In this document: piece by piece, positions 15,283-52,190 of the stretch
Numbering within the stretch: position 1 is the first letter of the stretch
How the letters are laid out: each line of letters begins with the position of its first letter
The notes under the pieces: model-generated
What the model was told of the DNA's origin: nothing
The model's database searches: none
Seen by the model: the letters and a program-made list of their open reading frames with translations, nothing else
Program-made: the position numbers and the translations under genes
NCBI GenBank assembly: GCA_963514005.1
Contig: OY740799.1
Location: forward strand, 27,466,001-27,530,000
Origin: Raja brachyura
Taxonomy: Eukaryota
DNA length: 64,000 nt
Direction: 5' to 3'

Positions 15283-15660
15283 CGTCTTTCCTCCAGTCTT
15301 TCCATCATCTTTGGAAACTTTCATTGCTGTTTATCAACATGAGGATCAAAGTTGTGCTAATGAAAGTCAAAGAAGCCAGTCAGAGACTGAGAAACAACAT
15401 TTAAACTGTTAGAGACATCAGCCAAACCTTAGGCTTACCAAAATCACCTGTTTGGAAGATCAAGAAGAAAGAGAGCACTGGTGAGCTTACTAATCGCAAA
15501 GGCACTGGCAGGTCAAGGAAGACATCCACAGCTGATGACAGAGGAATTCTCTCTATAATTAAGAAAACCCCCCCAAACACCTGTCCGACAGATCAGAAAC
15601 ACTATTCAGGAGTGGATTTGTCAATGGTCACTGTCCACAGAAGACTTCATGAACAGAAAT

Positions 15661-17059
15661 CAGGCATGACACAGGATACAACTGAAAAAAGAGGAAGAGA
15701 TGGGGGTCAAGGGGGCATTGCCCCCTGGTAGGAATCCGAGGGGCAACGCCCCTGGCAGGGGTAAATGAGGGCAGCACCCCCCCCTATGCAGATTTGTTTT
15801 GCTAATTGTACCTTGAATTGACACTTGTTTTCTTGCTTGTTTACCCTTAATTTCTCGCAGGGTCTTCCACACTCACAGGGACCCCCCCCTTTACCTTTGC
15901 TCACACTCGCAGTGACCCCCTCACTGTTCACACTCACAGGAAACCCCTCACCTTTGCTCACTCACAGGGAACCCCTCACTGCTCACACTCACAGGGACCC
16001 CCCCTTACCTTTGCTCACGCTCACAGGGGCCCCCTCACTGCTCACATTCAAGTGAAACCCCTCACCTTTGCTCAGACTCACAGGGACGTCCCTCACTGCT
16101 CACACTCACAGGGACGTCCCTCACTGCTCACACTCACAGGGACGTCCCTCACTGCTCACACTCACAGGGACGTCCCTCACTGCTCACACTCACAGGGACG
16201 TCCCTCACTGCTCACACTCACAGGGACGTCCCTCACTGCTCACACTCACAGGGACGTCCCTCACTGCTCACACTCACAGGGACGTCCCTCACTGCTCACA
16301 CTCACAGGGACGTCCCTCACTGCTCACACTCACAGGGACGTCCCTCACTGCTCACACTCACAGGGACGTCCCTCACTGCACACACTCACAGGGACCCCCC
16401 TCACTGCTCACACTCACAGGGACCCCCCTCACTACTCGCACTCACAGGGACCCCTTCACTGCTCACAGGAAACCCCTCACCTTTGCTCACTCACAGGGAC
16501 CCCCTCACTGCTCACACTCACAGGGACATCCCCTCACCTTTACTTACACTCAGAGACCTCCCCCTCTGCTCACCAGAGCTCACACACTCTCCCTCTACAT
16601 GCTTTAAAACGATTACAGACACCGACAAGGCCACGGTCCGGCCTTTCCCAGCCCAGTGCCCACTCTCCAGCTGCCGTCCCCTGGGCCGCGGCTACCAGCG
16701 CTAACTGCGTTCCTGGCCCCAGCGTCTTGCTCCACCTGGCCTCGCCTTGTCCCACCCCCCCCCCCCCCCCCCCCCACACCTCTCCTCCAATCACCGCTCT
16801 CTATCCTCAATCCCGCCCCCCCCCCACTTCTGCCTCTGACCGACGCCTCCCTCCTCCAATCATCGCACTGAATCATCATGTCCCGCTCCCCACTGCCTGC
16901 TGACTGACATCCATCTCGCCCAATCGCCGCCCTCAATAATCAGTCCTGCCCCCACTGTTTCGAGGAAAGTCATTTATAGATTTATAGAGATTTAGATTTG
17001 TTTTAACGAATTTCAAAATCCGTGGAAATTCGCGGGTCCGGGGAGAAATCTCCTGCCTG
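15661..17059. mobile_element. Non-autonomous hAT-like DNA element with 6-bp TSD, nested in Tc1
   Basis: TSD agaaat at 15655-15660 and 17060-17065; short TIR caggcatga / tcctgcctg; removing it restores the Tc1 sequence gaacagaaatacagaggctac. Confidence 0.75.
15865..16590. repeat. 28-bp minisatellite (cagggacgtccctcactgctcacactca)n
   Basis: 11 near-identical units starting 16081 to 16361, with degenerate units on both sides. Confidence 0.95.
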
Positions 17060-17808
17060 AGAAATACAGAGGCTACACTGCAAACCACTGCATAGCCGCT
17101 AAAATAGGATGGCCGGATTAGTTTGCCAAGAAGTACTTAAAAGAGCAACCACAGTTCTGGAAAAAAGGTCTTGTGGACGGATGAGACGAAGATTAACTTA
17201 TATCAGAGTGATGGCAAGAGCAAAGTATGGAGGAGGGAAGGAACTGCCCAAGATACAAAGCATACCACCTCATCTGTGAAACACGGTGGTGGGGGTGTTA
17301 TGGCCTGGGCATGTATGTCTGCTGAAGCAACTGACTCACTTATCTTCATTGATGATACAACTGCTGATGATAGTAGCATAATGAATTCTGAAGTGTATAG
17401 ACACATCCTATCTGCTCAAGTTCAAACAAATACCTCAAAACATTGGCCAGCGGTTCATTCTGCAGCAAGACAATGATCCTAAACATACTGCTAATACAAC
17501 AAAGGAGTTTTTCAAAGCTAAAAAAATGGTCAATTCTTGAGTGGCCAAGTCAATCACCCGATCTGAACCCAATTGAGCATGCCTTTTAAATGCAGAAGAG
17601 AAAACTGAAGGGGACTAGCCCCCAAAACAAGCATAAGCTAACGATGGCTGCAATACAGGCCTGGCAGAGCATCACCAGAGAAAACACCCAGCAACTGGTG
17701 CTGTCCATGAATCGCAGACTTCAAGCAGTCATTGCATGCAAAGGATATGCAACAAAATGCTAAACATGACTACTTTAATTTACGTTACACTGCTGTCCCA
17801 AACATTAT

Positions 17809-19134: not shown

Positions 19135-21493
19135 CATATAACAATTACAGCACGGAAACAGGCCATCTCGGCCCTTCAAGTCCGTGCCGAACAACTTTTT
19201 TCCCTTAGTCCCACCTGCCTGCACTCATACCATAACCCTCCATACCCTTCTCATCCATATGCCTATCCAATTTATTTTTAAATGATACCAACGAACCTGC
19301 CGCCACCACTTCCACTGGAAGCTCATTCCACACCGCTACCACTCTCTGAGTAAAGAAGTTCCCCCTCATGTTACCCCTAAACCTCTGTCCCTTAATTCTA
19401 AAGTCATGTCCTCTTGTTTGAATCTTCCCTATTCTCAAAGGGAAAAGCTTGTCCACATTAACTCTGTCTATCCCTCTCATCATTTTAAAGACCTCTATCA
19501 AGTCACCCCTTAACCTTCTGCGCTCCAGAGAATAAAGACCTAACTTATTCAACCTATCTCTGTAACTTAGCTGTTGAAACCCAGGCAACATTCTAGTAAA
19601 TCTCCTCTGTACCCTCTCTATTTTGTTGACATCCTTCCTATAATTGGGCGACCAAAATTGTACACCATACTCCAGATTTGGTCTCACCAACGTCTTGTAC
19701 AATTTTAACATTACATCCCAGCTTCTATACTCAATGCTCTGATTTATAAAGGCTAGCATACCAAAAGCTTTCTTTACCACCCTATCTATATGAGATTCTA
19801 CCTTCAAGGAACTATGCACGGTTATTCCCAGATCCCTCTGTTCAACTGTATTCTTCAATTCCCTACCGTTTACCATGCACGTCCTATTTTGATTTGTCCT
19901 GCCAAGGTGTAGCACCTCACATTTATCAGCATTAAACTCCATCTGCCATCTTTCAGCCCATTTTTCCAACTGGCCTAAATCACTCTGTAGACTTTGGAAA
20001 TCCTCTTCATTATCCACAACACCCCCTATCTTGGTATCATCTGCATACTTACTAATCCAATTTACCACCCCTTCATCCAGATCATTGATGTACATGACAA
20101 ACAACAAAGGACCCAACACAGATCCCTGAGGCACCCCACTAGTCACCTGCCTCCAACCCGACAAACAGCCATCCACCATTACCCTCTGGCTTCTCCCATT
20201 CAGCCACTGTTGAATCCATCTTGCTATTCCTGCACTTATACCCAACAGTTGAACCTTCTTAACCAACCTTCCATGAGGAACCTTGTCAAAGGCCTTACTG
20301 AAGTCCATATAGACAACATCCACTGCTTTACCCTCGTCAATTTCCCTAGTAACCTCTTCAAAAAATTCAAGAAGATTAGTCAAACATGACCTTCCAGGCA
20401 TAAATCCATGTTGACTGTTCCTAATTAGACCCTCTTTATCCAGATACTTATATATATTATCTCTAAGTATCTTTTCCATTAATTTGCCCACCACTGAAGT
20501 CAAACTAACCGGTCTATAATTGCTAGGTTTACTTTTAGAACCCTTTTTAAACAATGGAACAACATGCGCAGTACGCCAATCCTCGGGGACTATTCCAGTT
20601 TCTAATGACATTTGAAATATTTCTGTCATAGCCCCGGCTATTTCTACACTAACTTCCCTCAATGTCCTAGGGAATATCCTGTCAGGACCTGGAGACTTAT
20701 CCACTTTTATATTTTTCAAAAGTGCCAGTACTTCTTTTACTTTGAAACTCATAGTATCCATAGCTACTCTACTAGTTTCCCTTACCTCACATAATTCAAT
20801 ATCCTTCTCCTTGGTGAATACCGAAGAAAAGAAATTGTTCAATATCTCCCCCATCTCTTTTGGCTCTGCAGATAGCTGTCCACTCGGTCTCTCCAATGGA
20901 CCAATTTTATCCCTTGTTATCCTTTTGCTATTAACATAGCTGTAGAAACCCTTTGGATTTACTTTCACCTTACTTGCCAAAGCAACCTCATATCTTCTTT
21001 TAGCTTTTCTAATTTCTTTCTTTAGATTCTTTTTACATTCCTTATACTCCTCAAGCACATCATTTACTTCATGCTGCCTATAATTATTGTAGATCTCCCT
21101 CTTTTTCCGAACAAGATGTCCAATTTCCCTTGAAAACCAGGGCTCTTTCCAATTTTTACTGGTTCCTTTCAACTGAACAGGAACATAAAGATTTTGTACT
21201 CTTAAAATTTCCCCTTTAAATGTCCTCCATTTCTCCTCTACATCTTTCCCATAAAACAAAATGTCCCAGTTCACTCCTTTTAAATCATCTCGCATCTCGT
21301 TAAAGTTAGCCTTTCTCCAATCAAAAATCTCAACCCTAGGCCCAGTTCTGTCCTTCTCCATAATTATATTGAAACTAATGGTATTGTGATCACTGGACCC
21401 GAAGTGCTCCCCTACGCATACCTCCACCACCTGTCCCGTCTCATTTCCTAACAGGAGGTCCAGCACTGCCCCTCCTCTAGTAGGCACCTCCAA
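19135..21493 (-). mobile_element. Young 5'-truncated CR1/HER1 LINE with uninterrupted RT reading frame
   Basis: ORF 19205-21511 (768 aa): NYRPVSLTS, QHGFMPGRSC, DFSKAFDKV, GVPQGSVLGPLLF, YADD; 3'UTR and tail intact; lacks most of the endonuclease. Confidence 0.95.
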
Positions 21494-21676
21494 TAACAGA
21501 AAATTTGTCAAAATTAAGGGATTTTAAACATTAATATAAAAGCTGCAATATAAAATATCTGGAAACATTACATGCAACTCTTGGTGAAATACACATAAAC
21601 ATTCAAGTAGAAGTACACTCATATTAAACAAAAAGCTAAAACAAAATTCCATATTCAAAAATCTGGTCAGACATAC

Positions 21677-29700: not shown

Positions 29701-31069
29701 CAATTTGCATCTGGAGGTTTCTAACGTGTACTGTCATTGACAGTTCTTCTGTCTGGCAGGAAAGGGAGGTGCAGAAGATCAATATTGCTAAGTATATCAC
29801 TGCAAAAACTAGCATGGGGCTATAACAATTTATATTGGATTAGGAAATTATGGAAAATTAGTTGCTTGCTTCAGATTCAAGTCCATATAAATGCAATTTT
29901 TCAAATTTTCCATTAATAAAGCAGGTTATTTCCAAAGATTCTCATTGATCCTCTAGGCACATCAACATTTCTATTTTTAATTATGTTTCTTATTTGGTTT
30001 TTGATCCAAATAAATCAATATGTTTAAAGGAATTTTTCAGTAATTGTATACCTATTTTTTTAATATATGAAGCTCTGGAAGAAGTTGTTATATCTCAATG
30101 TCGAACAAAGAAGCAATATCTCCAGTGTACACATCAGCAGTGGCAACAATTTAGCATTTTTTATTTGCTATCACAAAATATTGAATACAGAATAAAAGGC
30201 AAATTATTTATTTATTTTAAGCGATGCGTTATATCATTTAATTCGATAAAAATGCCCTTTCACCATATGATAAATTATTTAAAGAAATAAAAACTTAAAA
30301 ATTAAAATCTCTTTAAAATAACAGAATTTATTTGCTACATTATACTAAGAATTTTGCTTAATAATTTTCATAATCACATTTTTAGGAACATTTTAATGGT
30401 TTTATCACTGTGAACAGAAAATTATTAAACAATTTAATAGCACTACAGAAAACAAGACAGTAACATGACAACTAGATCACACTTCACTCAAAAAGTAATA
30501 TCTATTTTATGATTACAAACAATTGCAAAAGTACACGTATTTAAAAAATATAGACTTAACCCCTACCTTTTCAAACCCTGACAGCTAGCAGAAAAAAGAA
30601 ACAACAAAACATGTAACAGACAACAAATTATATTACACTATTCTAATTGGAGCTAAACTTAAATAATTAGATGTTTTTAATGATATCTAACCCAGCACTG
30701 TCTCAATCTCTCTCTCACACACAACACACAAACATACTAAATTGGAAACATGTTAAGTACACTGATCAATGGCTGGAACAACAGATTATATCATTCAATT
30801 AAGGAAAATGTAATTAGATTTTTATTGCATCGTACTTTATTGATTTTATCAACAGATACCAAGTACAGATTAGAAATTGCTTTGGTGTCATCAGTTCTGC
30901 AGAGATTGCAATGAGAGTTGAAAGACACAAATAATCAAATTCTACTTCTGCAGTGTTAACAACTATAATATCAAAATTCAAATATATTATCAACTGTATT
31001 TAGCCATTAACCAGGACTTTGGGTTAGTTTTTTTTTTAAACATTAGATAATTTAATCAAAAGCACCTAC

Positions 31070-33990: not shown

Positions 33991-35775
33991 CAGTATTGAT
34001 GCTATAAAATAAATAAATAAGGTAAAAGTACAAATACGTCCATGTACACCGAGGTTAGAAATTACAGCAGCTGTCACTGTGTTAAGATTAGTCAGTTGTG
34101 CCAGTTTATTATGGGGAAAAGACAGATTATGGGGTATGTTTAGCAGACAGCTTATGGGGTATGATTCCATGCAGTTGTTTATCTAGGGTAAAAGCTATTT
34201 CTCAGTCTGGAGGCGGGGGTGGAAAAGGCCTAATAACGTCTGCCAGATGTTAGAAGTTCAAACAGACGATGGCATGAGTGTGTGGAGTCCTTACAGATGC
34301 TGATGGCTTTTCTGAGGCAGCGTGCATTATAGATGTCCTCCTGGGCTTGGAGCTGTATCCCAGTGCTCTGGAGACGACCCACTGAAGAGCTCTCCGATCC
34401 GCTGCTGTGCAACTAAAGGGCCTGAGTTTTCCCTTTGATTCAAACTCGGAGAATGTCCGTAACGAGTTCGTAAGTAATTTTTATTTATATAACACTTTTA
34501 AATCAAATCTTTTTGAAGCCAAAGTGCTTTACAGAGAAAAAAAATTAGACGACCATACATCCATATAAAATAAAAAGAGAAGAAACAAAAAAGACACAAT
34601 GCACTATAGGATTCAACATGAACGTTCCCCCACAGCAGAATCAACACTTTACACTGTGAGGGAAGGCACCAAAAAGTCCAGTCCTTCTCCTCCTAGTCCA
34701 CCCGAGGTCGGTGCCTGTTTGAGGCCTCCGCAGCCAGTCGCCGCAACAGCGGCCCGATGGTATAGGCCCTCCTGCCAGGAAGATGAAACACCGGCGTCGG
34801 GTGAAATAGTGATCAATTCATGGATCTGTCTGGAGCGGCCGCTCCCTCCCCGGAGACCGCAGCGCCCAAAGTCCTCAGGCCACGCTGGTTAGAGCTCCAA
34901 CTCTGGCGATCACGGATCCCAGGCTCCGCAGAGTTTTAAATCCAGCGCCGCCCGCGGCTGGATGTCCGCACCCACAGCTCCGCAATGTTGGGAGTCGGCT
35001 GTCACAGCATTCCGCCGGGACTACAGCTTGCCGCCGCCGAAGCTGTAGTCCCGGCAGGAAACGCCACTCCAGCCGATGGTGAGCCGCACTAGAAGACGAA
35101 GATGCAATTCGGAGGAATACCTCAGAAATAAAGCTTCCCCCTTCCCCTCCCCCCACCCACCACATAAAAAAAGACCCACAACAAACATTTTGATCTAACA
35201 GGACTAAAAATAATAATAAAAAAGGGTGAAAGGACAGACTGCAGGCAGACAAGTCATACACAGGCAGGTGGCCCACTCCTGCAGTCTGCCATCTGCAGGA
35301 GTCGATAGATATATCGTAGCGGCTCGTTACGCCAGCCGTAGGTACTCGGGGCATCAGGTAAGTCGGGACGTTTTTTCGGGCTGATGAAAAATGTCCACGA
35401 GTAATAAAATAGCCCCGTGTACCTTTGGCTGGCATTACGAGCCGCTACGATATATCCACGGACTCTTACGGCCTCCTATGGACTCGTTACGGACATTCTC
35501 CGAGTTTGAATCAAGAGGAAAACTCGGGAGAATTCGTGAGTAACTCGGGAAAGTGGGACAGGCTCTTAAGATACCACACAGATGTGCAGTATGTTAGGAT
35601 GCTCTCTGTGGTACAACGGTGGAAAGTCACCAGCATCTGTTTGGGCAGACCAGCTTTTTTCAGCATCCTCAGGAAAAACAGCCGTTGCTGTGCTTTCTTG
35701 ACCAGTGCAGTGGTGTTACTGGGCCACATGAGGTCCCCTGAAATGTGTGTGCCCAGAAACCTGAAGCTGGTTTCT
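33990..35775 (-). mobile_element. Rex1-like LINE fragment interrupted by a Harbinger-like MITE
   Basis: KKAQQRLFFLRMLKKAGLPKQMLVTFHRCTTESILTYCTSVWY (35511-35729) continues LSCTAADRRALQ after 34416. Confidence 0.8.
34417..35566. mobile_element. PIF/Harbinger-like MITE with TAA TSD; contains a further retro-insertion at about 34475-35300
   Basis: taa|agggcctg .. caggctct|taa; about 44-bp subterminal inverted repeats gagttttccctttgattcaaactcggagaatgtccgtaacgagt and its reverse complement. Confidence 0.75.
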
Positions 35776-38808: not shown

Positions 38809-41800
38809 AAGTGCATTCAGAAATTATTCAGACCGTCACCTTTTCCACATTTTGTTCCTTTACAGCCTTGTTTTAAAATGGATGAAATCCAATTTTTTTT
38901 CATCCTCAATCTAAACACAATACCCCAGAATGAAGTGAAAACAGGTGTTTAGAAATATCTGCAAAGTTATTAAAAATAAATAACAGAAGTATCATAATTA
39001 CATAAGTATTCAGACCCTTTGCTATGACACTCCAAATTGAGCAAAAATGTCCCAAGACCTCCGAGACAGGATTGTATCGAGACATAGATCTGGGGAAGGG
39101 TATAAAACAATTTCTGCAGCATTGCACGTCCCGAAGAGCACAGTGGCCTTCGTCATTCTTAAATGGAAGAACTTTGGAACCACCAGGACTCTTCATAGAG
39201 CTAGCCGGCCGGCCAAACTGAGCAATCGGGGGAGAAGGGCCTTGGTCAGGGAGGTGACCAAGAACCCGATGGCCACTCTAACAGAGCGCCAGAGTTTCTC
39301 TGTGGAGATGGGAGAACCTTCCAGAAGGACAACTATATCTGCAGCACTCCACCAATCAGGCCTTTATGGTAGTGCGGCAGCCCGCTTGGAGTTTGCCAAA
39401 AAGCACCTAAAAGACTCTCAGACCATGAGAAACAAGATTCTCTGGTCTGATGAAACCAAGATTGAACTCTTTGGCCTGAATGCCAAGCGTCATGTCTGGA
39501 GGAAACCAGGTGCTGCTCATCACCTGGCCAATACCATATCTACAGTGATGCACGGTGGTGGCAGCATTATGCTGTGGGGATGTTTTTCAGTGGCAGGAAT
39601 TGGGAGACTAATCAGGATCGAGGGAAAGATTAAAGGAGCAAAGTACAGAGAGATCCTTGATAAAAACCTGCTCCGAGGCATGCTGGACCTCAGACTGGGA
39701 CGGAGGTTCACCTTCCAACAGGACAACAATCCTAAGCACATAGTCAAGACAACACACAAGTGGCTTTGTGACAAGTCCATGAATGTCCTTAAGTGACCCA
39801 GTCAGAACCCAGACTTGAACCCGATCGAACATCTCTGGAGGGACCTGAAAATAGTTGTGCATCGACGCTCCCCATCCAACCTGACAGAGCTTGAGAGGAT
39901 CTGCAGAAAAGAATGGAAGAAATTACCCAAATACAGGTGTGCCAAGTTTGTAGCGTCATACCCAAGAAAGCTTGAGGCTGTAATTGCTGCCAAAGGTGCC
40001 TCAACAAAGCACTGAGTAAAGGGTCTGAACTTATGTACAGTGGCTTGCAAATGTATTCATACCCCTTGAACTTTTCCACATTTTGTCACATTACAACCAC
40101 AAACGTAAATGTATTTTATTGGGATTTTATGTGATAGACCAACACAAAGTGGCGCATTATTATGAAGTGGAAGGAAAATGATACATGGCTTTCAAATTTT
40201 TTTACAAATAAAAAACTGAAAAGTGTGGCGTGCAAAAGTATTCAGCCCCCTTTACTCTGATACCCCTAAATAAAATCCGGTGCAACCAATTGCCTTCAGA
40301 AGTCACCTAATTAGTAAATAGAGTCCATTTGTGTGTAATCTAATCTCAGTATAAATACAGCTGTTCTGTGAAGGCCTCAGAGGTTTGTTAGAGAACAAAC
40401 AACATCATGAAGCCCAAGGAACACACAGACAGGTCAGGGATAAAGTTGTGGAGAAGTTTAAAGCAGGGGTAGGTTATAAAAAAATATCTCAATCTTTGAA
40501 CATCTCACAGAGCACTGTTCAATCCATCATCCGAAAATGGAAAGAGTATGGCACAACTGCAAACCTACCAAGACATGGCCGTCCACCTAAACTGACAGGC
40601 CGGGCAAGGAGAGCATTGATCAGAGAAGCAGCCAAGACGCCCATGGAAGCTCTGGAGGAGCTGCGGAGATCCACAGCTCAGGTGGGAGAATCTGTCCACA
40701 GGACAACTAGTAGTTGTGCACTCCACAAATCAGCCTTTATGGAAGAGTGGCAAGAAGAAAACCATTGTTGAAACAAAGCCATAAGAAGTCCCGTTTGCAG
40801 TTTGCCACAAGCCATGTGGGGGACACAGCAAACGTGGAGGAGGGTGCTCTGGTCTGATGAGACCAAAATTGAAGTTTTTGGCCTAAATGCAAAACGCTAT
40901 GTGTGGTGGAAAACTGACACTGCACATCACCCTGAACACACCATCCCCACTGTGAAACATGGTGGTGGCAGCATCATGCTGTGGGGATGCTTTTCTTCAG
41001 CAGGGACAGGGAAGCTGGTCAAAGTTGATGGGAAGATGGATGGAGCCAAATACAGGGCAATCTTGGAAGAAAACCTGTTAAGAGTCTGCAAAAGACTTGA
41101 GACTGGGGTGAAGGTTCACCTTCCAGCAGGACAACGACCCTAAACATACAGCCAGAGCTACAATGGAATGGGTTAGATGAAAGCATATTCATGTGTTAGA
41201 ATGGCCCAGTCAAAGTCCAGACCTAAATCCAATTGAGAATCTCTGGCAAGACTTGAAAATTGCTGTTCATAGACGCTCTCCATCCAATCTGACTGAGCTT
41301 GAGCTATTTTGCAAAGAAGAATGGGACAACATTTCAGTCTCTAGATGTGCAAAGCTGGCCGAGACATACCCCAAAAGACTTGCAGCTGTAATTGCAGCGA
41401 AAGGTGGTTCTACAAAGTATTGACTCAGGGGGGCTGAATACTTTTGCACGCCACATTTTTCCGTTTTTTATTTGCAATAAAATTTGGAAACCATGTATCA
41501 TTTTCCTTCCACTTCACAATTATGCACCACTTTGTATTGGTCTATCACATAAAATCCCAATAAAATACATTTACGTTTGTGGTTGTAACGTGACAAAATG
41601 TGGAAAACGTCAATGGGGTATGAATACTTTTGCAAGCCACTGTAAATGTGATATTTCAGTTATTTATTTTTAATTACTTTGCAAACATTTCTAAACTCCT
41701 GTTTTCGCTTTTTTATTATGGGGTATTGTGTCTAGATTGATGATAACAAAAATGATTTTAATCAATTTTAGGATAAGGCAGTAACGTAACAAAATGTGGA

Positions 41801-45770: not shown

Positions 45771-46776
45771 TACATTTATAAAACCTTTGCAGATTAAACA
45801 TACAAGTATGAATGAAGTTCATTAGAGAGTTAAGTGATGGTTACCCATTTTAGACAATAACAAATATCAACATTTTAAATAATAAAAAAAGTAGGATTAG
45901 TGGAACTTCAACATGCATAGGACAGATTACTTGGAAAATAATCACTAATAGGACGTTAGTCTTTAGAAGGGAAGGGGATGCTACAATAACCCCAGAGGCA
46001 CTGGTTTAACAATATTGGGAAAAGCAGAGTTCCATAAAAAGAACTGCTGTACATGGAAACCAAGACATGATCACAGAATGTAACTGGGGTACCACGGGTC
46101 AAATTATGAGATGGTAGTATATGAATTAGCCTTGAATACCCTTTTTAGAATTAAAATGCAATGTATAGAGCAGATTAAAAATAAAACAGTAATCTCAGGT
46201 GGGATGCCCAAAACAAAACTTTACACCCAGGACCCAGAACATTTAGGAGGGAATTCAGGAAAAGATTCTTCAATTAAAAAAAATACAAAAACTGTACATA
46301 ACTCTCTGGCAAAAAAAACTGATTGATGACAACCGATAATTCTAAATCACTTATTAATTTTGCAATCCAAGAAAAGTTAAGGAATATAGAGCAAAGTATT
46401 TGTACTGTGTTAGATCACAATCTAAATTAATGGGAGAACAAGCTCAAGGAATTGAATAGGCTATATTTATTCTGATGTTTCTCAACAGCGAACAACTATG
46501 TTGCTCAGCGAAAACAAATCTCAGCAGTGAAAATAAAACAGTTTCAAGATTAAAGTATTCATCAACCTAAATTATATAATTGACACTGACAGAAACAGTT
46601 GTATGCAATTTCCACAGATCTCAAATTGCCTGCTATAACTACAATAGAAACCAATAGAATCTTCAGAGGTTCCTCAGAAGTTATGCCAGGTCAGGAATTC
46701 CTCTGGAATCTCTGCATTATTGTATCTCAAAGCAAATGCATTCTTGCTAAACAAATCCGCACCATTAATTACTTAC

Positions 46777-46868
46777 AATAAAGGCAATTATTGACGTGTA
46801 CACAGAGTGCCAATTTGATAAGGCTGAAAGGTTCTTTAAGAAACTGGTAACTGGTTTGGCACCTCGTT
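46777..46868 (-). CDS. GRAMD4: GRAMD4 coding exon
   Basis: tactttcag|..|gtaagt; 92 nt; KRGAKPVTSFLKNLSALSNWHSVYTSIIAFI. Confidence 0.95.
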
Positions 46869-47144
46869 CTGAAAGTAAATAAAAAAGTGATCCAGTAACT
46901 TTTTCTTTAAAATAATTAGATCAATAACATTTTCCATTTCCTTTGTGAACATTTATTGAAATAAAAATGACTCATTGCTCAAAACCTAGAATAATCTGGT
47001 TTAAATTAGAATATTAATTTTAATAAAGTTAATGATAACCGCATGTATAATTGAATATAGTGACATCCTGCAACATACAAAGGAATGAATAGCTGAGTTG
47101 TAACTAACCCACAGCACAACATTTTGTAAGCTGCACATTGCACA

Positions 47145-47435
47145 TTGGCACAGTGATAATAGAGTTGGTGCCTTACAGTGCCAGGCATCAGGATTTGATC
47201 CTGACTATGGATGCTATTTGTACTGAGTTTGTAAGCTCACCCCGTGAGCACAAGGGCTTTCTCAGGTGCTCTGCTTTCCTTCCACATACCAAAGACATGC
47301 AGGTCTGTAGGTTAATTGGCTTCTGTAAATTTGTCCCGAGTGGATAGGATAGAACTGGTGTACGGGTGATCGTTTGGTCAGCGCGGACTCGGTGGGCCGA
47401 AGGGCCTGTCTCAACACCGTATTTCTAAACTCTAA
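47145..47435 (+). mobile_element. HE1/V-SINE-type SINE
   Basis: ggcacagtg..agagttggtgccttacagtgcc head; ggactcggtgggccgaagggcctg tail. Confidence 0.8.
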
Positions 47436-47941
47436 AAATTTGCGACTTGTGTGTTCTGTGTTCCGGTTTACCAATTGTGAATATACTTCTGAAATTGCAT
47501 TTAATTGCTGTTCTGTTCTTGGAATGCAACATAGTGCATTGTATGGCACCCCATCACATCATAACATCGAATTTGGACTTTATTGAAGTGCAACAAAACT
47601 ATTAATACTCTTTTTGTCCCACCTGATTAATGCAGATGTGTGCAGAAAATGTCAACTCTCTGTTGGATCGATAGTTTAATTAAGAACACATCTGATACAT
47701 GCAATATTATAGAATTATTTCGAAAAATATATCTGCTCCTCTATGTTTAATTTTGATTTTAACAAAGTTAATATGGTAGAAGAATATTACTTATGAGTTA
47801 TTTCATGAGATGAGACCCAGCCAAACTGTACAAGATAAATTTACAATACAAGTTGAAACCACAAGGCTGATATCATAATTCCAATAATTTCAGCATACAA
47901 AAAGCTTATGTCTAACACCCAAAGAAAACAAATTTACTTAC

Positions 47942-47967
47942 TTAATCTTCTCATATTTTCAGTTAAT
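47942..47967 (-). CDS. GRAMD4: GRAMD4 26-nt coding microexon
   Basis: gtatttccctag|ATTAACTGAAAATATGAGAAGATTAA|gtaagt; (R)LTENMRRL(K), identical to recalled human peptide. Confidence 0.93.
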
Positions 47968-48470
47968 CTAGGGAAATACAAATTGATGAGACACAATACA
48001 TAATCTCGGGAAATACAAATTGATGAGATAAAAATCATAATTATTAAATTTGATCATTTAAAAAATATTTTATAAACACAGCTTCAGATACAAACTCAAA
48101 AGTTATGGCTTTGATGGTGCTGATATTTTTACCTCCTGCGAATCAACTGTTCAGAACATTTTAATCTATGCATTGATATCTTCACTATTGAACTAATTTC
48201 ATGTAATGCTTTGGGATACGTGAAAGAACGCTCCATGACTAACAACCACAGGTCTGTTTTTCTAAGTTAGTCACAACCTTTACTCTCTGCATCCTTCTAC
48301 ACAATTTAATTCCATCCATGGGGACTGAACAAAGTAACAAACATGAATTATTAAAATAGCAATTTCACTATTTAATTTATGGCCCAACTGTTCCACAAAA
48401 CAAATAAGTACTGCCAGTAACATGGCATGGAGACGCCAGCTGTGGGTAATTGCAGATCTCTTACACATAC

Positions 48471-48917
48471 CAAGTTCCAATACACTGTAAGAAGCAGTAA
48501 CAAAAAAAAACTATTCAGCAATAACTTAGATTGATTACAAATTGCTTAATTTATAGCTTCCTTTGGGCATTGTCTCTTTTAGAAAAATGAAGAATCTTCT
48601 AAAAATAATTTTAAAATCTAATTAGAAAATCATAGTTCCATTATTTTTAATATTCAAAATCAACAAGTACATAACAGGTAACAAACACCAAGATCTCGAC
48701 GGAAGCATAGAAAAACATATGCTAAATGTCCAAAGATTTGTTGCTTTAAACTCAATAGGACAAATAAAAATCTTAAACTACAAATGATGGCTGAATAGAT
48801 CACTCTCGCGCTCATCTGTGCAATAATTATCTTAAGCAAAACTCGCCATATTAAATTGCAACTGCATTCGATACAAGGGTTTTTTTGTTACTGCTTCTTA
48901 CAGTGTATTGTAACTTG
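48471..48917. repeat. 38-bp inverted repeat pair (48471-48508 / 48880-48917), 37/38 identical
   Basis: caagttccaatacactgtaagaagcagtaacaaaaaaa vs reverse complement caagttacaatacactgtaagaagcagtaacaaaaaaa. Confidence 0.95.
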
Positions 48918-49706
48918 TACATGTCATATTTAACCAATATTAATATTTGGATAACTTAATAGTACTTGTACAGTATTTGGGTGCATTGGTATTTCAACAT
49001 ATCTTTCAGGAGGTTGAATTCTGGAGATTGAAAACTTAAACAAACATATATATGGTTTTGTTTAATCCAGTAGAAAACTTATTTTAACTCAAGTCTCTTA
49101 ACAGTGTTGACAGCCACCTCAGCCCGAGTACAGCTTCACATATTTTCAGAGTAATCTATAGGATTTATGATCAAAAACAATGTATGATTTTTGGTCAGAG
49201 CCATCTTCTTTCAGGGAGTTCTCATTGCATTATCTGTTCCTATAACAATCAGTTTAAAAAAGTTAGACGAGCGTCATAATTTAAGAACATTATTAATTGG
49301 GGCGTCTGGATTTGTAATGACATTTACAGAAGGTAAATGGTGTGAAGAAGTAAGAAACCTCAGAATTTAGTACCGAGACAAATTGATGATCCATTCTTTA
49401 CTTAGAAAACTAAAAAGTAGCCTTTATCACTTCAAATGCCTATAATGGAACATGCTGACTAAATACATGAGACCTCTACCAACATGAGATTTTTCAATGT
49501 TCCTAGACCACTAAATGACACTAACAGGTTTCCATCCAGTAGGACAATAGAAATGACAATCAATCTTGGTAGCTATTGTGAGAATAGTTGGGGCAAGGTT
49601 CAGTCTGCTAAAACTGCAGTTTGATTTCAGTTGGAGAGAAGTGTTGTGGACCCCACATAACCCAGTGGAAAGCAGTTAGACCACAATACCAAATGGTTCT
49701 TCCTAC

Positions 49707-49839
49707 CGTTTAGCGCTAAGTGGCTCTTCCATTTCTACAGGGATCTCTTCTTGTTGGAATTGAAAATCTTCAATATACTCTGAAAACTTTTCAAAGAACC
49801 ATTTTTGAATCTTGGAGTAGAATGTCCTACCACGTTTTT
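49707..49839 (-). CDS. GRAMD4: GRAMD4 coding exon
   Basis: ttttccag|..|gtagga; 133 nt; EKRGRTFYSKIQKWFFEKFSEYIEDFQFQQEEIPVEMEEPLSAKR. Confidence 0.95.
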
Positions 49840-50329
49840 CTGGAAAATTTCAAAACAAGAGATAATTAGAACGGACCAACATTTCTTTCAAATGCAACAA
49901 AAGTCTTGCTGCAGTATTAACTTCTTTTGTAGGTCAATTCTTGAAACAGATTAATTATAGTTTTCTACTTTTTAATGGAATATTTCTCATCCTCAGTCTA
50001 TTTCAGTTTGTCACATAAATACTTTGTACTAAAATTCAAATGTTGCATCATGCATGGCAAATCTAGCTTCTCTGATTACTTTTGCAACATCCAATTTTAT
50101 ATTATATCTTCCAGAAAAGATTTTTATAGAAGGAAAATAAAGAGATTATTGCTTTTATGTCATGTTCCATTGTGCGCAGAGGTACTTTTTCCCCTGCTGA
50201 TAGGTTAATGACCTAATTTAATTGGAGATATTATAATTGAACTTGCAAGGCTATAACTCTAATACTTCGAAGAGGAGGGAGGTTCTATTAGATCAGAATT
50301 AATACAGTTTATTGATTACTTTTACCTCT

Positions 50330-52190
50330 TTCTTTGGAAGCTCATCGAGCTTGGGGATGACTTCCTTCCACTCCACATCTATGAAGTCAATGAGAACAGA
50401 AAAAGCCAACATGGCCCTACTTCAGGTAGATTAAGAGACAGGTGGAAAGTTTGGTGCACCTCTTATACCATTTACTCTGGGTTTTTAATGCTCCCGATGA
50501 AGTATCTGTAGGTTTTCAATATCAACCCCTTATTATGAGTGATCTCGGGGCAGGGATTCACACGAGTAATTTTGGACGTGACAATTATTCAAATATGGAT
50601 TTGAGATATGCTTGAATTGTTTCATCTCAAAATCTCTTACCATAAAAGGCTGAGGATAGAGTGCCTATTTCAGGAGACTGATGTCAGACATGCGAGTGAC
50701 ATCACCTGCCCATGGGAGCCCGCTTGTTATTAGTTGCTTAATACTGGGGATGTTGTCCTAAGGGACACGCTGACATTGATACGTTTATCCTGCCGAGGGG
50801 GGTTTGTTGTCAGAGGCCAGTGAAATGCAGCTGGGGCAGACCGATCGAGGACCTTTTTCTTTGCACATGTTAAAGGCAAGAACCATTCTTTTGTACACTT
50901 CATGGAATGAGTTGATGACACAGTGTTCGGTCTTCAACCATTTGCCAACTGCAACTCAATGACAGAGATTGAAATAACCTTGGCTTGGAACAGAGGCAAT
51001 GTGGATCAAAGCAATTTGCATTTATCCAGTAGATCAGCTCCATTCTCCATTTCAACAAAAGCTAGTAAGAATAGTGGTGCAGCATTGCAACTAGAAAGAA
51101 TGATAAAATTGCTTGATGCCAGGCAGTTATGGATTTGCAGGTTAAGATCGAAGCTTATACCGCCATGTAGTATTCACAAGATGGAGACACATTTCTATAA
51201 GCAGTCAAATTAGAGAAGTATGCTCCGTCGAACAACTCAACTGAAAGTGGTCAAAGAATTTTGTGACATAAGACACAACATGTGGCTAATGAGGTCCGTC
51301 ATATTTCTCTTGAAGTGGAAACCGGCGAAGGTCCAATCAGCCTCTAGTTAGATGATTAATGCTGCGATTTGAGAAGATGACTGAGGAGGAACCTAGCAAT
51401 GACATTCCTGGAGGTGACAACCGAGAGACCATCTGCAGTTGCTTCTGTGATGTAGGACAGGGTTTCTTCAAGGTCAGAGTGGAGGTTTACATTACAACGA
51501 GCAGATGGGATCATGAGATGTTCATGTATCTCATCAGGGAGTTGCTAAGACTCAACAGAAGCTCATTCTTAATAAAACCCCACAGAGACAGCATTCCTCG
51601 ACTGGTTTGTCCTTCCAGCAGGATTTATACCCACCAGGATTTCTGAGCTGGTCATTTTCTGCCCACCATGCCTTACAAAGAGCAACAACATCAATGACAA
51701 CGTATCCGATAATGCCAGTGAAGCAATATTCAGCTCTGTCATACTTGGGGTATCGATGAGGTTCCCCATATTTTATGTGCTGTCCTTTACATCGAGGACA
51801 TACAGGTGCCAGTTTGTGCATTTTTAAGCATGTGACCATCAGTGAAGTAAAGGGAGCTGGTATTGGTCAGTGACAGTACGATCCACTGTATGGGCACCTG
51901 TAGGTATGTACACACCCACATTCGACTGGGCTGAGGCACAAATACTCTTGCTCACTGCCTAATCCAGTGCAATGACTTATTGGATCAATGCTTATTCGCC
52001 GAGTTCCCCGAGATGCTGCCTGACACGCTGAATTACACCAGCACTGTGTGTCATTTTTCCACTGCCATGCACATGGCCACCTGTATCCCTTTTGTTCATG
52101 GCTCTCCCGGTTCCTGAATTTCCTGTCACTGAGTGTCTCACCAACATCCAACCGTGGTCATGGTCTACCAATGCTTTGGAGGTCTCATCG
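50330..52190 (-). mobile_element. Highly decayed RTE (BovB-like) LINE
   Basis: Residual endonuclease peptide YVVIDVVALCKAWWAENDQLRNPGGYKSCWKDKP (RTE pattern IDIAALSETR..GQL..GYTFFWKGKP); RTE-like 3' end ggggatgacttccttccac. Confidence 0.6.

Follow-up and report, generated by a model that had tools for sequence, protein, structure and literature searches.

GRAMD4 exons and normal splicing around the intron

The window, by which we mean the whole 64,000-nt stretch of the Raja brachyura assembly analysed here (contig OY740799.1, positions 27,466,001 to 27,530,000), carries GRAMD4 on its minus strand. Aligning GRAMD4 proteins by tblastn and fitting their exon junctions let us place 16 GRAMD4 exons in it; the gene was identified from the exon upstream of the intron studied here, whose identity to Amblyraja radiata GRAMD4 is 100%. 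This 133-nt coding exon (49707-49839, minus strand; donor GTAGGA after exonic CG) is supported by tblastn, by junction fit to GRAMD4 proteins and by a joint in an RNA-like contig. It is followed on the same strand by a 26-nt microexon encoding LTENMRRL (47942-47967), supported by database proteins and a contig joint, and by the downstream coding exon (46777-46868), supported by tblastn and junction fit. When the exons were joined computationally, the 26-nt exon alone gave the known GRAMD4 protein, and LTENMRRL is encoded in 174 of the 175 database proteins compared, from sharks to mammals, the remaining one being an unrelated 44-mer. These proteins were drawn from 120 of 1030 matches, all 13 short matches and 51 of 76 cluster members, and since they had been ranked by how closely they resemble the normal region, the set leans towards the normal form. 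The joint of normal splicing, 49707-47967, occurs at depth 100 in one of four RNA-like runs, X17. The RNA nature of these four runs is a guess, and they consist of assembled contigs from unlabelled tissues; X17 was automatically tagged 'probably DNA', a tag against which its exon joint argues. Splicing would run from 49707 through the 26-nt exon to 46868, as in other vertebrates.

Some further features touch on the splicing of this gene. The acceptor of the 26-nt exon lies in a 37-nt tandem duplication (47964-48041), which is also present in relative E (see below) and leaves at 48004 an AG that could act as a weak decoy (score 3.6, versus 5.6 for the real acceptor) and whose use would shift the frame. 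GRAMD4 also has a real alternative microexon of 18 nt (LSGFEK; 30567-30584, minus strand), with UGC directly before its AG, which is included in 7 of the first 53 proteins, those of skates and rays. A high-copy repeat lies at about 47150-47440.

A 14-nt exon-like site within the intron

An earlier sequence-only reading of this stretch had described a 14-nt microexon, flanked by a CAG acceptor and a GTATGT donor, in the intron before the 26-nt exon, and the minus-strand letters confirm this anatomy. The site consists of a pyrimidine tract with CAG and a UGC at -12 (48485-48510), an exon-like 14-mer that is a candidate cryptic microexon (48471-48484) and a donor-like GTATGT (48465-48470). For scoring we used splice matrices built from GRAMD4's own 15 junctions, with the real sites scored leave-one-out. 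The acceptor of the 14-mer scores 10.6, within the top third of real GRAMD4 acceptors (2.7-12.7, n = 15) and above that of the real 26-nt exon (5.6), and the donor scores 6.3, compared with 2.3-9.9 for real GRAMD4 donors. With the cut-off set, after the fact, at the 14-mer's own score, 46.5 kb contain two pairs of at most 30 nt, of which one lies in a real exon and the 14-mer's is the only intronic one. Equally strong pairs occur 13 times in 2.4 Mb of strand, and 128 pairs are found at the lower-quartile cut-off. Two sequence features of SRRM3/4-type microexons are present, namely the very short exon (14 nt) and the UGC at -12, between branch point and AG. The UGC feature is found in 74-79% of SRRM3/4 microexons according to the accessible part of 10.1101/2024.09.17.613571; it also occurs in 3 of the 15 ordinary GRAMD4 acceptors.

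The frame arithmetic of the sequence-only reading holds. Computed joining of the 14-nt exon alone gives LSAKRVLELERGAKP, an open frame with four residues fewer than the normal form, and joining both the 14-nt and the 26-nt exon gives an immediate stop. The open frame, however, belongs only to the allele of this genome: position 48477 (plus strand) reads A in both readable relatives, which places an in-frame TAA in the 14-mer.

An antisense copy of the site lies upstream in the pre-mRNA

Both a repeat scan of 46000-51000 and self-BLAST (E 1.7e-10) agree with the claim of a near-perfect antisense copy about 370 nt upstream of the site. The inverted pair 48471-48508 / 48880-48917 is 38 nt long, 37/38 complementary (97%) and 371 nt apart, and it is the one outstanding pair among 13 in the scan, the other 12 being weak pairs spread over 5 kb. 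An inner inverted pair of 17 nt (48511-48527 / 48782-48798) was considered and rejected, as it is at the chance level set by these 12. Rfam gave 0 matches at E <= 1 across 46700-49900. The antisense arm (48880-48917, minus strand), upstream in the pre-mRNA, was said to cover tract, AG and exon and to stop at the donor. It does cover the AG and the exon; of the tract it matches only 7 of 9 T, GG replacing the first two. Although the letters cease to match at the donor, G-U pairs extend the predicted RNA helix across it.

In folding predictions the minus strand of 48440-48960 (521 nt) is far more stable than expected (z = -5.95; 0 of 100 shuffles as good), and the two arms are predicted to pair in the pre-mRNA at -52.8 kcal/mol, which would make tract, AG and exon inaccessible. 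According to an equilibrium fold of 800 nt, the predicted chance of being unpaired is 0.02 with the arm and 0.32 without it in the tract, 0.00 and 0.23 at the AG, 0.16 and 0.27 in the exon, and 0.20 and 0.29 at the donor. The model thus predicts a strong duplex over tract, AG and exon. Since the upstream arm is transcribed first, pairing could form as the 14-nt site emerges.

Searching the 2.7-Gb genome of the species itself with 48400-48980, by a method that skips very common words, returned only the locus and its two self-matches; within 664 kb each arm matches only the other arm, and the spacer has 0 other matches. The sequence-only reading had seen no target-site duplication suggestive of a MITE and had suggested a copy-number check of the 38-mer. 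We reject a MITE as the source of the arms, given the single locus in 2.7 Gb, the lack of a target-site duplication at the junctions and a relative, G, that has the spacer without the second arm. Mobile-element sequence does occur elsewhere in this DNA. Small elements with terminal inverted repeats lie at 34421-35528 of the window and in L015, L023, L029, L041, L044, L045 and L048; most members of this family start with a common CCTGTCCCAC motif, and we take them to be likely MITEs. A 772-codon open frame within a GRAMD4 intron (19205-21523, minus strand) resembles, to our eye, a LINE reverse transcriptase, and transposase-like remnants lie near 15400-17500 and 39000-41200.

The upstream arm is most likely a young templated insertion

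Runs from organisms A-H matching the stretch numbered 20 of 21, all of them contigs, and 7 different runs were compared. The readable relatives were E (run X17) and G (run X15); X13 gave no alignment and X14 a 34-nt stray piece, and B, C, D and F were left unread. Relative G is about 4% diverged from this genome. Its single contig of 1966 nt (depth 21.4), which spans from 48445, joins 48877 directly to 48916, so that 48878-48915 (38 nt) are absent at record positions 1497 to 1498. To the right of the joint 20 of 20 letters match, a short side below the usual threshold of 31, in one run and a contiguous record. In E, a single contig covers 48518-49051 with full depth in the bin 48840-48946, indicating, as judged by length, that an arm-length segment is present. 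G also lacks 48466, which lowers the donor score from 6.3 to -0.9, whereas E keeps the donor. Arm and intact donor therefore go together in 3 of 3 lineages, a small and unpolarised sample. Over 48518-48853, E differs from this genome by 19 substitutions and G by 15, and because the two are about equally far from it, the tree of three has no root.

When the 38 nt absent from G are laid against 48510-48473, the alignment is gapless and 35 of 38 positions match; putting the base of the relatives at 48477 raises this to 36. At the junctions AG is common on the left (48876-48877, plus strand, a 2-nt microhomology in register with 48512-48511) and TG on the right, the last two nucleotides of the antisense arm (48916-48917) being old flank that serves as the microhomology. 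Given the absence from G, the register of the missing piece on 48510-48473 and the 2-nt microhomologies, the arm is most likely a young, templated inverted insertion. As the base at 48477 in both relatives equals that of the arm, the copy appears to have been exact when made, and the mismatch at 48477 is probably a later change to the source copy, made in the lineage of this genome. That the direction of change was a gain is suggested by the exact boundaries, with E and G the only relatives compared.

We propose that a 3' end at 48877 folded back onto a match of 2-3 nt and, after 38 nt had been copied, returned to its own template; a later change of the source base at 48477 would then have broken one pair and, by chance, removed the stop codon. 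The junction matches of 2-3 nt rank 3/76 and 13/26 among sites within 1 kb, not above chance, and because they are so short and unremarkable the template-switch model is a fit and not a proof. A longer microhomeology over the donor as primer found no support (rank 13/26). The empty site lies in short palindromes (48872-48925; TACA-AG-TGTA at the junction, TGTACA and ACATGT), possibly a stalling site.

Alternatively, the arm could be old and deleted in G, or the G contig could represent one allele or an assembly slip. The equal distance of E and G, with no root, and the dependence on one contig with 20 letters on one side leave some room for this. Against it, both ends of the missing 38 nt fall within 2 nt of those of the inverted copy, the missing piece has no direct repeat at its ends, and the arms differ at only 1 of 38 positions, as expected for a copy about as old as the species splits. 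We consider this alternative very improbable.

The arm resembles the products of template switching, MMB-TI and Pol theta TINS in being a short reverse-complement copy of a nearby template and in showing 1-3 nt microhomology, no target-site duplication, AT-rich sequence and an inverted repeat made in one event. The accessible parts of the respective papers describe a four-point template-switch model (PMC5453318), germline MMB-TI in human DNA (PMC8421209), hairpin creation by template switch in one event (PMC8794818) and Pol theta TINS with tracts rarely over 10 bp per round (PMC7165422). Here the template lies 370 nt away and the tract is 38 nt; unlike in that class, the copy happens to span a full acceptor and an exon-like 14-mer. 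As such, the arm illustrates a known type of mutation neatly and can be dated.

The boldest variant of the silencer reading discussed below would take as template the gene's own pre-mRNA, cut at the donor of the 14-mer. The match ends exactly at the 14-mer's last base, and two non-matching C then follow the copied tract on the same strand. The exon's last base is where a half-spliced pre-mRNA would terminate. The junctions are explained no less well by a DNA template. RNA-derived patches at breaks have been described (PMC5110952, as far as its accessible text goes), and the arm shares with class 2 or RNA-derived templated sequence insertions the short patch at a break, the microhomology and possibly untemplated bases; those insertions, however, come from distant loci, whereas the template here lies in the same intron. 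If RNA was the template, the insertion would be fossil evidence that the 14-nt exon was used in the germ line.

Inverted pairs of this size and low copy number are routine. Among 43 inverted pairs in 1.26 Mb (30-100 nt, at least 90% alike, 50-1000 nt apart) 4 are low-copy, including the GRAMD4 pair. The other three, in about 1.2 Mb, measure 51, 52 and 36 nt (L031:418-674; L117:3408-3949; L013:2923-3775) and probably reflect the same kind of event; one of them, L117, also spans an acceptor scoring 10.6, with no donor near.

Use of the exon and possible roles of the duplex

We found no joint at 48484 or 48471 among the 15 joints listed for the four RNA-like contig sets, a further 10 falling outside the list, and none of the 10 listed rows with letters between joints touches either position. 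In X17, a contig covering 47942-48509 crosses both donor and acceptor of the 14-mer unbroken, the intron contigs of this run having depths of 5.6-7.8. As a test of exon use this is weak, because rare forms are lost from contigs and decay would remove a poison form. The peptide of the 14-nt exon was found in 0 of the 175 database proteins, and none of the 13 short matches is a truncated protein ending at the 14-mer. A literature search, with subscription journals and supplementary microexon tables outside its scope, found nothing on GRAMD4 microexons or this splice site among the titles and abstract openings listed.

These data bear on the proposal of the sequence-only reading that a duplex under regulation selects either the 14-nt or the 26-nt exon, or else gates a conserved poison exon. 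The frames fit such a switch in this genome, the predicted duplex is strong, and control of this kind exists for BRD2 and BRD3 (accessible text of PMC10789245). Against it, the arm is absent from one of two relatives, both relatives carry TAA, and the donor is broken in G. The sole arm difference seen (48477) breaks one pair, with no compensatory change. Moreover, LTENMRRL occurs in 174 of 175 proteins and the alternative in none, in a set that favours the normal form, and the repeat scan shows no competing partner for the near-perfect 38-bp stem. Substitutions also accumulate at the intron's rate: G shows at least 20 changes in 433 nt, of which 2 fall in the 46-nt site, where 2.1 are expected, and the run 48478-48516, unchanged in G, has P = 0.17. 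The 14-nt site thus appears, from this comparison, to evolve like the surrounding intron, with no excess conservation. Because TAA is present in both relatives and the donor is lost in G, a conserved protein-swapping switch is unsupported, and we regard this form of the proposal as largely refuted. What is found does not resemble a mutually exclusive pair (TAA in 2 of 2 relatives, 0 of 175 proteins with the 14-nt peptide) or conserved complementary regions (an arm missing in G, one uncompensated change), and a regulated switch of either kind strikes us as extremely unlikely.

The proposal that the antisense copy silences a cryptic exon fares better: the anatomy fits and the predicted duplex covers the site, but use of the exon was seen neither in contigs nor in proteins. 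With the same origin of the arm, silencing could be incidental, the insertion having shut a leaky poison microexon, perhaps a neural one of SRRM3/4 type, and G having lost the donor instead. The splice-like pair is strong and rare and has UGC between tract and AG. Inclusion would bring a stop in the relatives and, together with the 26-nt exon, also in this genome; the AG is predicted to be unpaired at 0.00 with the arm versus 0.23 without, and the joint occurrence of arm and intact donor in all three lineages would be in keeping with silencing. Stems that hide the splice sites of pseudoexons are known (PMC1935003, accessible part). Against this, inclusion is unseen in the listed contig joints and the 175 proteins, UGC occurs in ordinary acceptors as well, the site is not conserved above the intron's rate, and the lineages number three and are unpolarised. 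Because the site is unusually splice-like and predicted to be fully paired, we hold incidental silencing to be possible, if unlikely. In its stronger form, one repair event made an antisense silencer, the copy shutting a working poison microexon in some skates while the sister lineage lost the donor; this we find doubtful.

The reading that we consider fairly probable is that the arm is a scar over an unused site, that is, a young backwards copy from repair or template switching, the duplex merely hiding a 14-nt exon that is seldom or never used and having no regulated role. Several points count against it. The GG in place of TT at the junction is without explanation. The site is unusually splice-like, and chance would seldom place a copy over such a site: a rough product, assuming a 40% intronic share, puts the number of chance cases with a copy over a sense-strand microexon-like site at 0.4 to 4 per genome. 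Since the window was chosen for that very coincidence, chance is still a possible explanation in spite of its rarity. Finally, the armless lineage has a broken donor and the two armed lineages keep theirs, which fits silencing either way (n = 3).

Several known systems resemble the locus in part. In the accessible text of PMC10789245, long-range intronic pairing is predicted to repress a stop-bringing cryptic exon, as it would here, in BRD2 (exon 3b) and BRD3 (exon 5b); those regions are conserved and proven by compensatory mutants, and those of BRD2 lie in flanking introns. In GRAMD4, by contrast, the exon itself forms one of the arms, a close relative lacks the other, and inclusion is only hypothetical. 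The cryptic poison exons described in the accessible part of PMC11632617 are likewise conserved, unlike the GRAMD4 site. Pseudoexons of ATM and CFTR masked by RNA stems (PMC1935003) are alike in that a stem hides otherwise usable splice sites, and inverted Alu pairs (PMC2533698, PMC13019027), judging from the accessible portions of these papers, in that a new inverted pair changes splicing in one step. GRAMD4 differs from both in that no mobile element is involved and the masking arm is a dedicated, one-off copy of a splice site. If the exon proved usable without the arm, the locus would offer a natural example, with species representing the states before and after, of how one mutation can give rise to a long-range RNA structure that silences splicing, and without a mobile element.

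The intron with the inverted repeat is itself covered by low-depth contigs (within 47942-49733) in all four RNA-like runs. The downstream intron is uncovered in these runs, a lack of cover that carries no weight. One intron contig of X17 ends 3 letters past the 26-nt exon, at the same point as the spliced contig, and may represent an intermediate in which the inverted-repeat intron is retained and the next intron is gone, a weak hint of slow removal.
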